The notes under the pieces are model-generated. The model was not told where the DNA came from, made no database searches, and saw nothing but the letters and a program-made list of their open reading frames with translations. 5,852 nucleotides of DNA from IMG/VR virus record IMGVR_UViG_2713896785_000010; one strand, written 5' to 3'. Source of the stretch: a virus (Duplodnaviria; Heunggongvirae; Uroviricota; Caudoviricetes). Of the stretch, positions 2,442 through 5,852 are shown piece by piece; position 1 is the first letter of the stretch, and each line of letters opens with the position of its first letter. A program made the position numbers and the translations under genes.

Positions 2442-2485
2442 CCGATGTGTGTTACATATCATTTCTCCACGGGGAATATCCCCAC

Positions 2486-2536
2486 GCCAGCGCAGACTCT
2501 TTTACCCGTTCTCTTCTGCGCTGGCTCTTTTTTATT
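2486..2536 (+). terminator. Intrinsic (Rho-independent) terminator on the plus strand
   Basis: A perfect 11-bp stem, GCCAGCGCAGA (2486..2496) pairing with TCTGCGCTGGC (2515..2525), with an 18-nt pyrimidine-rich loop, followed immediately by TCTTTTTTATT. A 5-bp GGGGA/TCCCC hairpin lies just upstream (2472..2484). The loop is long for a canonical terminator. Confidence 0.5.
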
Positions 2537-2714
2537 ATGCTGCTGCATTTACCTCTGGCACCAGGCTTTCTATCTCAACACAATACGTGGTACTTCTTGT
2601 AACCAATATCATAACGATTAATCGACATAGAATTTCTCCCGTGTACAGGAACAGAGTTAAAAAGCCGGAACCGGAATCAAATCACAGGATGACCATCTGC
2701 CAGTGGCAGGTCAT

Positions 2715-2741
2715 AAAAAAAAGGCCGCGCCATGCGCAGCC
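2715..2741 (-). terminator. Strong intrinsic terminator on the late (minus) strand, proposed tR' equivalent
   Basis: On the minus strand: GGCTGCGCATGGCGCGGCC, an 8-bp GC-rich stem with one G-U pair and a 3-nt loop, followed by eight Ts (the A8 run at 2715..2722 on the plus strand). It is the first clear terminator downstream of pR' on this strand. A second 5-bp hairpin (2697..2709) follows. Confidence 0.65.
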
Positions 2742-2927
2742 AGAACTCACAAGGAAAATGATAGAAGGAAATAACATTAGTGATGTACGCATGGCGCCTC
2801 CCGCTAAGTTCTGCAATGATCAAACAGAACTCGCTACGTGCCCTTAAAACTCGATCATTTAGCCCCTCCAAGGAGGATTCACCATGCGGTTGGTTTTTTA
2901 ATAAACAGTAAACAAAAAAGTCAAGAA

Positions 2928-3038
2928 TTATTCATTCTGTTCTTTCATCATCGGCCACAGCAATACCACAATGCCGCAGACCAGAGCGCCATCAGTCAGT
3001 ACCAACATTATCCTGCTGGTGAAATCCATCATCACCAT
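2928..3038 (-). CDS. Possible small hydrophobic membrane peptide, 36 aa (MVMMDFTSRIMLVLTDGALVCGIVVLLWPMMKEQNE)
   Basis: Hand-translated minus-strand ORF below the track's length cutoff: ATG at 3038..3036, TAA at 2930..2928. It has a single predicted TM helix and a charged C-terminal tail. No convincing Shine-Dalgarno upstream, and three in-frame ATGs within the first four codons. It is on the same strand and downstream of the 252-aa membrane protein, upstream of tR'. Confidence 0.3.
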   Translation of the reverse strand: MVMMDFTSRIMLVLTDGALVCGIVVLLWPMMKEQNE

Positions 3039-3171
3039 CACTAAAAGCAGGATCACAACAGCAAGCAGACACAGTTTATAAAACAATGTTCAGAAAACGC
3101 ATTCAGCATGCCTAAGGTTCTATTCCTACGAATAGCCAACTTGCAACTTAAAATATTATTTATGCAGCCAA

Positions 3172-3930
3172 TTAAATTCTGGTCCTTACAATATCAACCT
3201 GAAGATTCTTATCTTGTGCTGATTGATAAATCACAAACCTTTTACTACCTGCATTGAAAGAAGTAGACAAAACCAGACAATTATCATAACGAGCAAGAAC
3301 ATAATACCAACCATCATTATAATTAATCATTTCATATTCTTTCTTAAACTGTGGTTTGTAATATCCTGTCAGAAATGAAAAAAGCCAGAAATATGCCACA
3401 AAAGCAATCATCACAATCTCAAAAAAATGTTTTTTTATAAATGGCTTATCATAGAAGCATGATACCGATAAAAATCGCCCATAAGATCTTATCGAAATTG
3501 TAACCGCCAGCGCAATCGCTGCTGACAGTAGCAAAAGAGGTACCTGAATCTTCTGTCTCAATATAGAAAACTCAATAATTGCCGGCACAAACAATAATTC
3601 CACAGCAAAATAAAGGCGAAATACATTTAGCTCTTGCATAGAATGTTTTCTTTTCACTGCGAAAAAGAATACAACACCAATACCCCAACCGATAAGAAAT
3701 ATAGCAATGACGATAACTGCAAAAAATAAACTTCTGGCAACATCATCAACACCTGCACCTACAATCCACCATGGGAAGCCGTAGTAAAAAGAAGTACCCC
3801 ATCCATAGAAATAAGCACTCCCCCATCCAAGGCATCCCATGTAGGCAATAAAAAGTGAAGAACTCCTGAGCAGCGCACCATCCTTCATAACCACCCCAAT
3901 ACAAGATGATAACATTGGCTTACAACTCAT
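3172..3930 (-). CDS. Uncharacterised polytopic inner-membrane protein, 252 aa (about 5 predicted TM segments plus a roughly 60-aa soluble C-terminal domain); moron between Q/pR' and the lysis cassette
   Basis: Long ORF with no overlapping alternative. Hydrophobic segments include LFFAVIVIAIFLIGWGIGVVFFFAV, VFRLYFAVELLFVPAIIEFSIL, VPLLLLSAAIALAVTISI and FFEIVMIAFVAYFWLFSFLTGYY, with a Gly/aromatic-rich N-terminal region. Spot counts of 60-nt stretches give roughly 27-35% GC here against about 52% in Q. No family recognised from memory. The first ATG (3930) lacks a Shine-Dalgarno; ATG at 3888 (MKDGALL...), preceded by GGGGTGG, is an alternative start. Confidence 0.75.
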   Translation of the reverse strand: MSCKPMLSSCIGVVMKDGALLRSSSLFIAYMGCLGWGSAYFYGWGTSFYYGFPWWIVGAGVDDVARSLFFAVIVIAIFLIGWGIGVVFFFAVKRKHSMQELNVFRLYFAVELLFVPAIIEFSILRQKIQVPLLLLSAAIALAVTISIRSYGRFLSVSCFYDKPFIKKHFFEIVMIAFVAYFWLFSFLTGYYKPQFKKEYEMINYNDGWYYVLARYDNCLVLSTSFNAGSKRFVIYQSAQDKNLQVDIVRTRI

Positions 3931-4077
3931 AACAAAAGCAATTCAATGCCGTCAAGAGGTTACAGGCTAAAAAAACTCTATTACATTGCAGTCAGCATGT
4001 TTACTACACAAATACAATTCAGAGCATAAAAACTACTCGGCGGCAGGTTATTGAGACTCATCAATGACATGTAAAAA

Positions 4078-4125
4078 ACGCCCATTATTGGTGTCAAGTT
4101 TCCCCAAAGTTATTCAAAAAGTCAA
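4078..4125 (-). promoter_or_regulatory. Late promoter pR' with Q-utilisation (qut) site and promoter-proximal pause element
   Basis: The minus-strand sequence TTGACTTTTTGAATAACTTTGGGGAAACTTGACACCAATAATGGGCG is nearly collinear with the lambda pR' region as recalled (TTGACTTATTGAATAAAATTGGGTAAATTTGACTCAACGATGGG). The -35 TTGACT is at 4120..4125 and the -10-like GAAACT at 4097..4102. A -10-like AATAAT at 4084..4089 sits in the early transcribed region, consistent with a sigma70-dependent pause. Similarity to lambda ends a few bases after ATGGG. Confidence 0.65.
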
Positions 4126-4167
4126 TATTATGCCGTTAATATGTTGCCATCCGTGGCAATCATGGCG

Positions 4168-4791
4168 CTAACGTGTGATCGCATTCAAAATGTTGTCTGC
4201 GATTGACTCTTCCTTGTGGCATTGCACAACCAGAGCGTCATACAGCGGCTTAACAGTGCGTGACCAGGTGGGTTGGGTAAGGTTTGGGATTAGCATCGTC
4301 ACAGCGCGATATGCGGCGCTTGCTGGCATTCTTGAATAACCGACGCCTTTACATCTTCCGCACTCTTTCTCAGCAACTCTCCCCAATTGCTCTGTTTTTG
4401 ATATATCAACCGCACGGCCTGTACCGTGGCAATCTCTGCATCTTGCGCCCGGCGTCGCGGCACTACGGCAATAATCCGCATAAGCGAATGTTGCGAGCAC
4501 TTGCAGTACCTTTGCCTTAGTATTTCCTTCAAGCTTTGCCACACCACGGTATTTCCCCGATACCTTGTGTGCAAATTGCATCAGATAGTTGATAGCCTTT
4601 TGTTTGTCGTTCTGGCTTAGTTCATGCTTACCGCAGAATGCAGCCATTCCGAATCCGGCTTGTGATTGCGCCATCCCCATAGCAGCCATCACATCAGTAC
4701 CGGAAAGAGAGTCAGAAGCCGTGGCCCGTGGTGAGTCGCTCATCATCGGGCTTTTTGGCGAATGAAATTTAGCTACGCTTTCGAGTCTCAT
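4168..4791 (-). CDS. Q: Late-gene antitermination protein Q (lambda Q type), 207 aa
   Basis: The protein [28 protein letters not shown]...[36 protein letters not shown]... matches lambda Q as recalled, including the zinc-binding Cys motif. It is followed by a pR'-like promoter. Confidence 0.95.
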
Positions 4792-5453
4792 GCGCCTTCT
4801 CCCTGTACCTGAATCAATGTGAGGTTTCCGCAGAACACTGCGCCGGTATCTATATACATCTGGTTGGCAAACTTGAGTGGTTTCACTGCTGGCGTATGAC
4901 CAAAGATGAACGTGTCCGCGCCTTTGATTTCTTTCACGATCCCGTCTTGTGAGTTGCTGATTCGTTCGCGGTTCCAGATTACCTGCTGATGATCAACTGG
5001 CTTTCCAAACTCGTATTTATCACAAGGATAATCGGCATGGCAGATGACATATTTTTTTCCTTTACTCACCAGTTCGATGATTAACGGAAGTTCATCTGCT
5101 TTATGGGCAAGAGCTTTAGCCAGAATTTCTTTGTCGTAATCGAGATTAAAGAACCAGCCACCGCCATTAAGCAGCCAGTGATTGACGTTTCCACGCTCTG
5201 ATAAGCCATCAATCATCATTTGCTCATGGTTTCCACGTACAGCTCTGAACCAGGGGAATGTGATTAATTCCAGGCATTCTACGTTCTCTGTACCGCGATC
5301 AACCAAATCGCCCACCGAGATAAGCAGGTCTTTTTTGGTGTCGAATCCTATCGTCTCCAGTTTTTTCATCAGGTTCGTGTAGCATCCGTGCAGATCGCCA
5401 ACTACCCAAATATTTCGGTATTTGCTGCCATCAATTCTTTCGTAGATATTCAT
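4788..5453 (-). CDS. ninI: Ser/Thr protein phosphatase (lambda ORF221 / NinI, PPP-family metallophosphatase), 221 aa
   Basis: Contains the metallophosphatase motifs GDLHG, GDLVDRG and GNHE. It is near-identical to the lambda phosphatase as recalled apart from N-terminal substitutions. Its ATG overlaps the ninG stop (ATGA) and its stop overlaps the Q start. Confidence 0.95.
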
Positions 5454-5852
5454 GCAACCTCACTTCTGCTGTTTCGCAGTTTTTTAAGTTTCTGTTGATA
5501 CTCCGCCTTGATGGCCCTGCACTCTTCGACAGTCCAGCGATAGCGGTTATGGTTTGATTCGATTTCCTCTACTGCTTCCTGCCCGATGCGGCTAATCAGT
5601 TCGACGCGATACGGAACGAGATTTCCGCTTTTGTGCTGGTTGCACACCACGCATTGCTTGTGAATATTGCGTTCATCAAATCGGAGTTGAGGTGCCGCAG
5701 CAGTTGTCCGGTAATGTCCGGCATCCCACTGAGCAGACGTGAGCGTTCCGCACGAGATACATGGTAAGTCGCGGTCTCTTTCTCTGATGAAGGCGTTTAC
5801 GGCTTGTTGGGCTTGTTTAATCCAGTAACTGCGGGGCTTTAAGGCGAGTTTT
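5450..5852 (-). CDS. ninG: NinG/Rap recombination-associated endonuclease, C-terminal part (5' end lies beyond the window)
   Basis: Hand translation of the minus strand from the window edge gives ...[133 protein letters not shown], which matches lambda NinG as recalled. The track's 66-aa ORF (5450..5650) is only its C-terminal portion, starting at an internal GTG. Confidence 0.85.

Follow-up and report, generated by a model that had tools for sequence, protein, structure and literature searches.

A TfpB/STM1630-family membrane protein gene in a moron-like cassette between the late promoter and the lysis genes of a lambdoid phage

The window, by which we mean the whole stretch of 5,852 nucleotides that was analysed (Caudoviricetes record IMGVR_UViG_2713896785_000010), contains on its minus strand an open reading frame (ORF) of 252 aa at positions 3172–3930. 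Upstream of this ORF lie the genes for NinG, for the NinI phosphatase and for a Q of lambda type (4168–4791; Pfam Antiterm, E = 8e-56). Directly downstream of Q follows a late promoter pR' of the lambda type together with its qut region (4097–4125, minus strand), which we located by transfer from the HK544 annotation of pR'/qut and read in the sequence; HK544 is 96.9% identical to the window over positions 4093–5444. On the downstream side are found the gene for a 'TciB-like' small membrane protein of 52 aa (2928–3086, minus strand; Pfam DUF3927, E = 3e-14; PHROG 1470), and those for a class II holin, a lysozyme and Rz. The ORF and the genes for holin, endolysin and spanin share one direction of transcription, and the ORF is located directly upstream of these genes and downstream of pR', so that its position between Q/pR' and the lysis cassette, as stated in the initial annotation, is borne out by the genes on either side.

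The protein encoded at this locus is most likely shorter than the 252 residues originally assigned to 3172–3930, and starts at M15 of the ORF, with the ATG at 3888, giving a product of 238 aa. Homologues from at least six genera are 236–238 aa long and align from M15, the first residue of PHROGs 14371 and 17164 corresponds to residue 15 of the window ORF, and in Escherichia sp. MOD1 a deletion of 1 nt places the upstream ATG out of frame. The alternative starts giving 252 aa and 247 aa were rejected on account of the M15 starts of the homologues together with the frame break in MOD1, and the segment containing these in-frame upstream ATGs (3889–3930, minus strand) is most likely 5' leader or promoter and not coding. 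Direct reading of the sequence further reveals a Shine-Dalgarno-like GGGGTGG at 3891–3897, ahead of the ATG at 3888.

Comparison of the window ORF with copies of 86% and 83% identity yields dN/dS values of 0.05–0.09. Hence, the ORF is not a chance reading frame but a real protein gene under strong purifying selection. Its base composition deviates from that of the surrounding genes, as the GC content is 36.3% compared to 50.3% for Q, 45% for ninI and 50.7% for R and Rz, and GC3 is 30.5% compared to 48%. The initial annotation had estimated about 30% against 50% GC; the gene is indeed richer in AT than its neighbours, but the figure for the ORF is 36.3%, and 29% is reached only as the minimum of local 300-nt windows.

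The ORF is part of a mobile cassette of 1.45 kb (2604–4049, minus strand), the boundaries of which were determined by blastn and which is 97.9% identical to phage 434, 98% to phage 2B8, 86% to an E. albertii prophage and 83% to an Escherichia sp. prophage. In phage 434, the corresponding gene CPT_434_68 (UMO75332.1, 'putative membrane protein') is 100% identical over all 252 codons, and a gene annotated as 'Phage protein' in 2B8 is 98% identical. In both phages the same 1.45-kb cassette, including the DUF3927 gene and a terminator, lies between the gene of the late activator and those for lysis. In phage 434, the cassette is preceded by an activator of the Q82 type and a terminator that is intact, and followed by a SASA/NanS-p esterase gene, while the window has the lambda-type Q/pR' and a degenerate terminator upstream, and its cassette adjoins the holin region. 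The same cassette thus occurs behind two unrelated Q types. HK544, HK446, mEp234, mEp213 and Sf101 contain the same NinI-Q and R-Rz genes without the segment 2604–4049, and only about 430 bp separate Q from the holin gene in HK544. The gene is therefore variably present between conserved flanking genes of lambdoid phages and deviates from them in base composition, both of which are expected of a moron in the Hendrix/Juhala sense, and the proposal that it had been added horizontally at the Q–S junction is supported. Among 5426 complete E. coli genomes, the ORF is found in 692 (about 13%) at 1224 places, with up to three prophage copies per genome, compared to 1361 genomes and 2015 places for the Q allele of the window; it is present in just 3 of 50,697 phage records. 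The DUF3927 gene and the ORF occur together only in the window, at loci L001 and L016, in 434 and 2B8, and in E. albertii, where a frameshift is found. Judged by this distribution, the DUF3927 gene appears to be a cassette member in E. coli prophages only and not an obligate partner of the ORF; a literature search for TciB/DUF3927 returned nothing relevant.

A consensus scan of the region ahead of the gene (3906–3955, minus strand) identified promoter-like elements, consisting of TTGTTA-18-TATCAT with a TG extension at 3935–3906 and a conserved TTGACG at 3955–3950, although the number of promoters predicted in this region does not exceed that in shuffled sequence. This region has almost the same sequence in 434, E. 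albertii and Escherichia sp. MOD1, and upstream of the ETEC plasmid homologue of 59% identity the hexamers are kept, so that about 95 nt with sigma-70-like hexamers are conserved upstream of the ORF, ETEC plasmids included. At the upstream edge of the cassette (4022–4049, minus strand), homology to 434 and folding reveal the degenerate remains of an intrinsic terminator of which that phage has the intact form: the predicted hairpin has a folding energy of −13.3 kcal/mol (z −4.2) in 434 compared to −5.1 kcal/mol (z +0.2) in the window. On the other side, a terminator scan and folding identified a strong intrinsic-terminator-like hairpin followed by U8 (2723–2741, minus strand; −15.2 kcal/mol, z −2.5), which is located inside a 36-aa ORF (2682–2792). 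This is the first strong terminator-like site downstream of both pR' and the ORF, and the equivalent position is annotated as a terminator in 434; in all, two strong terminators are predicted between the ORF and the holin gene. Since a conserved promoter-like region lies upstream and a strong predicted terminator downstream, the sequence features fit those of a self-contained moron cassette between pR' and the lysis genes, with the ORF as its cargo.

The initial annotation could not place the protein in any family. Contrary to this, P0001, a protein of 100% identity, and each of the 103 homologues hit carry the precomputed Pfam model PF27470 'TfpB', the window ORF matches PHROG 1521 (listed under 'unknown function') with E = 2e-154, and identical E. 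coli copies bear the PGAP name 'STM1630 family protein'. Our local Pfam-A and NCBIfam scans of the ORF, which used releases older than the PF27470 model, gave no significant match, Pfam scans of 29 diverse family members returned only noise, and a literature search for the accessions or PF27470 found no paper mentioning them. The protein further resembles M. bovis TfpB and STM1630 over its full length and exhibits the architecture of the family, which comprises a length of about 240 aa, an aromatic/Gly motif near the N-terminus, five helices and, at the C-terminus, a beta domain. Residues A25, Y26, W30, W40, G175, Y195 and F218 are invariant in alignments that span Enterobacteriaceae, Pasteurellaceae and Neisseria. 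By sequence, the window protein is thus a full-length member of the PF27470 TfpB / PHROG 1521 / PGAP STM1630 family, and we annotate 3172–3888 (minus strand) as the coding sequence of an inner-membrane protein of this family based on the ORF, the conserved start, PF27470, PHROG 1521, the AlphaFold2 model and dN/dS. The sequence is, moreover, already known, as it has been deposited in phage 434 and catalogued in Pfam and PHROGs.

An AlphaFold2 model built from a diverse alignment (pLDDT 80.5, pTM 0.72), which supersedes one built from close homologues only (pLDDT 59), together with hydropathy analysis places helices at residues 4–36, 47–78, 89–111, 116–136 and 155–181. In the model, these are followed by a five-stranded, all-beta C-terminal domain of about 55 aa (184–235), in agreement with the about five transmembrane helices and soluble C-terminal domain proposed at the outset. 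Counts of lysine and arginine amount to 2.9 and 4.3 for loops 2 and 4, but to 0 and 0.9 for loops 1 and 3. The C-terminal domain is itself basic (about 10 K+R) and three lysines stand directly after helix 5, both of which count against a C-out orientation. We nevertheless assign the protein, with moderate confidence, to the inner membrane with the N-terminus inside and the C-terminus outside. The best-conserved parts appear to be the aromatic/Gly motif at the turn between helices 1 and 2 and the linker between helix 5 and the beta domain, both of which would face the periplasm. Since no conserved polar catalytic set or catalytic motif is evident in alignments across distant family members, we read the protein as a non-enzyme. 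A profile search of PDB sequences gave no matches at E ≤ 10, and the structural-neighbour search suggested for the model returned nothing significant (Foldseek best E = 0.47 against PDB and 0.04 against BFVD); matches to MscS and SH3-like folds in PDB were weak and were discarded.

The only family member with experimental data is STM1630 of Salmonella Typhimurium (P0075), which is 46% identical to the window protein (E = 1e-70, 94% coverage) and has the same length of 238 aa. We equate P0075 with STM1630 because a published deletion primer encodes the N-terminus of P0075 and because the gene has steB and sseJ as its neighbours. Like the window gene, STM1630 is an AT-rich, horizontally acquired single gene, but it resides in a chromosomal islet between these two effector genes rather than in a prophage, and its upstream region is unrelated. 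It possesses its own promoter and is bound by H-NS, with expression in both SPI-2-inducing medium and macrophages (PMC6785131 S1 Text). The phenotypes in the literature are weak or inconsistent and comprise no growth defect and a modestly increased intramacrophage replication in strain 4/74. Hypermotility of an STM1630 mutant was dismissed as a functional clue, as a clean deletion failed to reproduce it.

The founding member of PF27470 is TfpB of Moraxella bovis and M. lacunata, which has the same architecture. At an M. bovis locus (L033), tblastn aligns residues 9–236 with 27% identity (E = 2e-19), and the Moraxella TfpB and the window protein have the motifs W-x-x-A-Y-x-Y-G-W-G and Y-G-[FY]-P-W in common. 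The Moraxella protein differs in its length of 261 aa and in its location inside an invertible type IV pilin segment beside piv. The M. bovis tfpB ORF is flanked by inverted pilin segments, the founding tfpB is directly downstream of one pilin cassette and co-oriented with it, and pilin genes adjoin tfpB in all five Moraxella loci; both M. lacunata copies are truncated to 195 aa. Further homologues are found on 106 Shigella pINV plasmids, beside eltAB on ETEC Ent plasmids, at the cdt locus of Glaesserella, on STEC and EPEC prophages, and as solitary copies between housekeeping genes in Pasteurellaceae and Neisseriaceae. Between eltA and the ETEC homologue, we looked for leftovers of a phage and found only an IS110-family fragment. 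Most family members are located outside prophages, namely as solitary chromosomal genes, on virulence plasmids or in the Moraxella pilin-inversion segment, and all-against-all ORF clustering of 27 loci revealed no conserved partner gene beyond within-genus synteny. The family is made up of genes that are solitary, rich in AT and horizontally mobile, and its hosts are animal-associated Enterobacteriaceae, Pasteurellaceae, Neisseriaceae and Moraxella.

We consider it most probable, at roughly 55%, that the window gene is a TfpB/STM1630 moron encoding a lysogen-expressed, non-enzymatic accessory protein of the envelope. The protein would be made in the lysogen and would benefit the host cell, not phage replication or lysis, and its action would more likely consist in binding or perturbing another envelope component. 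Expression could start from the promoter-like region of the gene itself, and the cassette of the window could also be read from constitutive pR' transcription. Such read-through into the cassette is possible because the 434-type terminator upstream is degenerate and the next strong terminator follows only after the cassette. The position of the ORF downstream of pR' would also fit Q-dependent late expression.

A rather unlikely alternative is that the protein confers superinfection exclusion or abortive infection and would block entry of an incoming genome or collapse the membrane upon infection. Exclusion would then depend on the surface facing the periplasm, much as with HK97 gp15, P22 SieA or T4 Imm. 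Superinfection exclusion (Sie) proteins are typically single inner-membrane proteins that act without partners, and the absence of a needed partner gene, the probable periplasmic domain predicted by the model, the variable presence at a prophage moron hotspot and the multiple prophage copies in one genome would all be in line with such a role. The window gene shares its niche and moron logic with these proteins and with the Q–S morons stxAB, nmpC, nanS-p and LT-II, yet no sequence, profile or fold similarity to any of them was detected. Neither does the protein match a described defence family (0 families in PADLOC-DB v2 at E ≤ 1), and PHROG 1521 carries no function. Induction of STM1630 under SPI-2 and macrophage conditions would be unusual for a defence gene, the ORF is rare among phage records, and the predominance of the family outside prophages, from STM1630, pINV and the ETEC plasmids to the solitary and Moraxella copies, weakens a phage-specific reading.

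It is quite improbable that the protein is an accessory factor of type IV filaments, which would associate with pilins or pseudopilins in the inner membrane and influence the assembly of the pilus or of type II secretion, so that the prophage copy might alter piliation of the host. This idea draws on the pilin-adjacent position of the founding member and its Moraxella relatives, and to our knowledge all host taxa of the family possess type IVa pilus or competence-pilus genes. Outside Moraxella, however, none of the examined loci, that is the window and the enterobacterial, Pasteurellaceae and Neisseria loci, has pilin or pil/gsp genes alongside, and the truncation of both M. lacunata copies likewise speaks against it. 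A function for Moraxella TfpB is not known to have been established, and our literature search found none published. When compared by description to TfpY, TfpX and TfpZ (FimB-like) of Pseudomonas aeruginosa, which are pilin-adjacent, polytopic inner-membrane proteins, the window protein shares the predicted cytoplasmic N-terminus, odd number of transmembrane helices, periplasmic beta-rich C-terminal domain and non-enzymatic nature; TfpY-like proteins bind major and minor pilins and have no enzymatic role (PMC11841053). They differ, however, in having three transmembrane helices and a mixed alpha/beta domain, compared to the five helices and all-beta domain of our model.

A late-phase function, in which the protein would be made only after Q antitermination and adjust the envelope so as to time lysis or release progeny, acting for instance as an antiholin or a membrane protein that modulates lysis, is very unlikely: although the gene's orientation and place between pR' and the lysis genes would suit it and the intact terminator before the cassette in 434 means that expression there could depend on Q, the ORF is dispensable, being missing from related phages with the same lysis genes and from the viable phage 434B, in which the whole region is replaced (PMC9119081), plasmid and chromosomal family members have no lysis genes nearby, two strong terminators are predicted before the holin gene, and a protein of 238 aa with five helices is unlike a holin or lysis protein of about 70–150 aa with 1–4 transmembrane helices and an obligate link to an endolysin.

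Returning to a lysogen-expressed envelope protein, the arrangement in the window is a simple illustration of a way in which a lysogen could express cargo that has no regulation of its own, since pR' is intact, the upstream terminator is degenerate and a strong terminator follows only after the cassette. We regard as unlikely, yet worth stating, a wider reading in which the family is a mobile single-gene envelope module that binds the machinery of type IV filaments or some other entry route in the inner membrane. If true, it would change piliation, uptake of DNA or phage, or toxin export in the carrier cell, and would explain why the gene has repeatedly travelled with horizontally acquired virulence DNA of mucosal pathogens, namely the Moraxella pilin switch, the Q–S toxin slot, the eltAB plasmids, pINV, the sseJ/steB islet and Glaesserella cdt. 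The prophage copy would then represent a novel type of lysogenic-conversion or exclusion factor, with constitutive expression from pR' owing to loss of the terminator in between.

The window sequence in itself is ordinary, as it is deposited, covered by Pfam and PHROGs, and found in about one in eight complete E. coli genomes. The family to which it belongs merits attention for its strong purifying selection, its carriage by 434, a founding model phage, and its repeated occurrence on the chief mobile elements associated with virulence in enteric and respiratory pathogens, namely STEC and EPEC prophages, Shigella pINV, ETEC LT plasmids, the SPI-2-co-expressed islet of Salmonella and the pilin switch of Moraxella. 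A phenotype for any single member would annotate thousands of genes.

The initial annotation could not place the membrane-protein ORF at 3172–3930 (minus strand) in any family, but PF27470 'TfpB', PHROG 1521 and the PGAP family 'STM1630 family protein' all apply to it. The ORF has no match in older Pfam and NCBIfam releases. PF27470, named 'TfpB' in the contig tables, is precomputed on all 103 of 103 homologues, including one that is 100% identical to the ORF product (P0001); PHROG 1521, of unknown function, matches with an E value of 2e-154, and the newest PGAP label on identical E. coli copies is that of the STM1630 family. The Salmonella homologue P0075 (46% identity) adjoins sseJ and its N-terminus is encoded by the published STM1630 deletion primer, which identifies it as the namesake STM1630, a 717-bp gene flanked by steB and sseJ. 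When one genome per species was scanned with a degenerate pattern, 27 loci were recovered, including Moraxella bovis, M. equi, M. lacunata and M. oblonga. In M. bovis, a 261-aa ORF lies on a 1.9-kb contig (L033) between two inverted pilin C-terminal segments, and in M. lacunata the homologue has piv on one side and a complete type IV pilin gene on the other; the Moraxella ORF is the classical tfpB of the pilin-inversion region. M. lacunata NCTC10359 carries two pilin–tfpB loci, and both M. lacunata tfpB copies (L035, L036) appear truncated, since they stop at 195 aa versus 261 aa in M. bovis.

The family is small, with 72 clusters at 50% identity among 1.84 billion representatives, and its named members occur only in animal-associated Enterobacteriaceae, Pasteurellaceae, Neisseriaceae and Moraxella. 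Among 50,697 phage records, the only ones with the gene are those of wild-type phage 434 (CPT_434_68, 'putative membrane protein', 100% identical) and phage 2B8 (98% identical); the phage 434 genome paper assigns CPT_434_68 no function (PMC9119081). Of 5426 complete E. coli genomes, 692 carry the allele, some of them up to three times; nearly all of the copies, which occupy 1224 places in total, are at least 99% identical, and O157:H7, O26, O103, O111, O121, O145 and O127:H6 strains are among the carriers. In E. coli OkiPb01684 (NZ_AP042519.1, 1167345–1168838; matches H1/H94) the ORF is split by an IS1A element, a natural knock-out that could serve for strain comparison. A 3-kb contig assigned to a 'Veillonella sp.' MAG (L016, JAIITD010000172.1) matches the E. 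coli cassette, DUF3927 gene included, with 100% identity and almost certainly represents mis-binned Escherichia prophage DNA. We are highly confident in classifying the product as a full-length TfpB/STM1630-family inner-membrane protein encoded on a moron cassette. As gene and family are already catalogued, the sequence feature as such is not new.

A 252-aa reading frame had been proposed, and it exists, but translation almost certainly begins at its third ATG (3888), giving a product of 238 aa. Homologues of 236–238 aa from Escherichia, Citrobacter, Cronobacter, Klebsiella, Enterobacter, Salmonella and Yersinia align from the methionine at 3888, residue 15 is the first residue of two PHROG fragment families, the homologue in phage 2B8 is annotated with 717 bp, and a 1-nt deletion in Escherichia sp. 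MOD1 puts the upstream ATG out of frame. Judged by dN/dS values of 0.053 and 0.086 against copies of 86% and 83% DNA identity, respectively, the ORF is a real gene and a chance ORF is ruled out. Its GC content is 36.3% (GC3 30.5%; 300-nt local windows down to 29%), compared with 50.3% for Q, 45% for ninI and 50.7% for R and Rz; the earlier estimate of 30% against 50% thus had the right direction but slightly overstated the difference.

The window represents the late-region junction of a lambdoid prophage. Along the minus strand, NinG (5450–5650) is followed by a NinI-type phosphatase (4788–5453), a lambda-type antiterminator Q (4168–4791; Pfam Antiterm, E 8e-56), the late promoter pR' (4097–4125), the ORF, a 52-aa DUF3927 protein (2928–3086), a class II holin, lysozyme and Rz (1157–2313, partly N-masked) and Rha (390–1007); a YlcI/DUF3950 protein is encoded on the plus strand (8–202). 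The pR' position was transferred from the annotated pR'/qut of phage HK544 (96.9% identity over 4093–5444). The ninG stop overlaps the ninI start at 5450–5453, and NinH, which sits between NinG and NinI in HK544 (L043, 3602–3808), is absent from the window and phage 434. Since 50-nt N blocks at 1930–1979 and 2221–2270 break the lysozyme and holin genes and single Ns occur at 1184, 1192, 1215 and 1228 within the Rz/Rz1 region, the lysis genes are not fully readable in the window.

The initial annotation was correct in its observation of the ORF at the Q–holin junction, and its view of the gene as a moron is substantiated by an insert that lacks a counterpart in related phages and differs in GC from its neighbours. 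HK544, HK446, mEp234, mEp213 and Sf101 have the NinI–Q and R–Rz genes in common and all five lack the insert; the Q-to-holin distance is about 430 bp in HK544 versus about 1.85 kb in the window. The unit common to the window, 434, 2B8, E. albertii and Escherichia sp. spans 2604–4049; besides the ORF and the DUF3927 gene it includes a 36-aa ORF and a strong terminator (2723–2741, −15.2 kcal/mol); in phage 434 it comes after a Q82-type activator. The window's Q allele occurs at 2015 places in 1361 complete E. coli genomes, more than the ORF, and the cassette is hence variably present. The DUF3927 gene, directly 3′ of the ORF, encodes a small membrane protein of PHROG 1470 ('TciB-like inhibition of cell division or resistance to colicin'), is annotated TciB in phage 434 and frameshifted in E. 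albertii, and is found together with the ORF in no context other than the E. coli prophage cassette. The 36-aa ORF (2682–2792, minus strand; MRTSLMLFPSIIFLVSSGCAWRG...) carries a signal-peptide- and lipobox-like 'SSGC' and has no Pfam match; the terminator hairpin is embedded within its coding sequence, and phage 434 annotates a longer 62-aa 'putative membrane protein' at this position. WP_012578864.1, a 132-aa RefSeq 'hypothetical protein' antisense to the cassette 3′ end (2449–2847, plus strand), is possibly a spurious call: no Pfam family matches it, and both the terminator and the small ORF of the opposite strand overlap it.

Elsewhere, family members occupy diverse surroundings, and no neighbouring gene is common across genera among the examined loci. 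STM1630 lies in the Salmonella steB–sseJ islet (L003). On Ent plasmids of ETEC such as pUMNK88_Ent (L012–L015, L046) the homologue is divergent from eltAB and about 870 bp upstream of it, in the vicinity of STb and EAST1, and 106 Shigella pINV plasmids carry the gene, among them pWR100 (L045), where IS remnants surround it. A Klebsiella-labelled contig combines it with IS elements, an AraC-type regulator, DsbA and STb, a further homologue is found on a Rep3 plasmid-like contig, and in Yersinia the gene is directly 3′ of a Q-like antiterminator. In Pasteurellaceae and Neisseriaceae it is solitary between unrelated housekeeping genes, its GC usually below that of the locus; Aggregatibacter has two homologues per genome, and the gene adjoins cdtA and cdtC in Glaesserella parasuis (L023) and an HlyB/HlyD-type exporter in Mesocricetibacter (L021). 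This recurrent proximity to toxins and effectors is striking, but a common fate of imported AT-rich DNA may be all that lies behind it.

Hydropathy and an AlphaFold2 model agree on five long helices (residues 4–36, 47–78, 89–111, 116–136 and 155–181), and the model adds a five-stranded all-beta domain (184–235), in line with the predicted polytopic protein of about five helices and a small C-terminal domain. The model was obtained from a diverse alignment (pLDDT 80.5, pTM 0.72); close homologues alone gave a poor one. On average, family members have 2.9 K+R residues in loop 2 and 4.3 in loop 4 but 0.9 in loop 3 and none in loop 1, which favours an N-in/C-out topology that would place both the C-terminal domain and the conserved YYGFPWW turn on the periplasmic side; our confidence in it is only moderate because the C-terminal domain is basic and three lysines follow helix 5. 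The residues invariant across Enterobacteriaceae, Pasteurellaceae and Neisseria (A25, Y26, W30, W40, A51, G175, Y195 and F218) are all aromatic or small. No conserved Asp/Glu/His/Ser/Cys set is visible in this alignment, which leads us to propose that the protein works by binding or scaffolding and is not an enzyme.

The roughly 95 nt that precede the start codon are conserved and, by consensus match, promoter-like, with TTGACG (3955–3950) and TTGTTA-18-TATCAT with a TG extension (3935–3906); these hexamers are kept upstream of the 59%-identical ETEC plasmid homologue, although in the same scan promoter-like sites in the region were no more numerous than in shuffled sequence. In phage 434 an intact intrinsic terminator precedes the cassette (L002, 3878–3905; −13.3 kcal/mol, z −4.2, U8), and the E. 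albertii version is weaker (−9.3 kcal/mol). In the window, recombination with the lambda-type pR' region (joint at 4022–4049) has removed the 5′ half of this hairpin, and the remnant (4022–4047; −5.1 kcal/mol, z +0.2) does not fold better than shuffled sequence. Lambda pR' fires constitutively and its transcript ends at tR' unless Q acts. As the terminator is degenerate and the terminator scan found no other such site between pR' and the ORF, we predict that in the lysogen, transcription from pR' could run through the ORF and the DUF3927 gene up to the terminator at 2723–2741. The degenerate terminator provides an easy handle for an expression test.

STM1630 is the only family member with experimental data. 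The S1 Text of PMC6785131 describes it as of unknown function, absent from S. Typhi, bound by H-NS, to which its lack of transposon insertions is attributed, and transcribed from a promoter of its own that is inactivated by two SNPs in ST313. According to the same text its expression is seen both in SPI-2-inducing medium and within macrophages, its deletion causes no growth defect and modestly increases intramacrophage replication in strain 4/74, and in calves and chicks signature-tagged mutants reportedly showed attenuation (Morgan 2004, cited therein). Hypermotility from a screen was not among the seven phenotypes confirmed by a clean-deletion study. For Moraxella TfpB nothing was found in the literature searched.

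We favour, with a probability of roughly 0.55, a non-enzymatic envelope accessory protein that would be made in the lysogen and use its conserved, periplasm-facing surface to act on a further component of the envelope, to the benefit of the carrier cell rather than of phage replication. Superinfection exclusion or abortive infection, as initially suggested, is plausible for a prophage membrane protein, but fits poorly with a mostly non-phage family and finds no defence-database or fold match; we regard it as unlikely. Still less probable is an accessory factor of a type IV filament system: the Moraxella pilin context and an analogy with TfpY-like pilin accessory proteins speak for it, whereas loci outside Moraxella show no pilin linkage and TfpY-like proteins differ in helix count and type of C-terminal domain. 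A late lysis-associated role is highly improbable, as the ORF is dispensable, terminators intervene and homologues occur without lysis genes nearby. The remaining interest lies in a widespread family that is tied to virulence-associated mobile elements.
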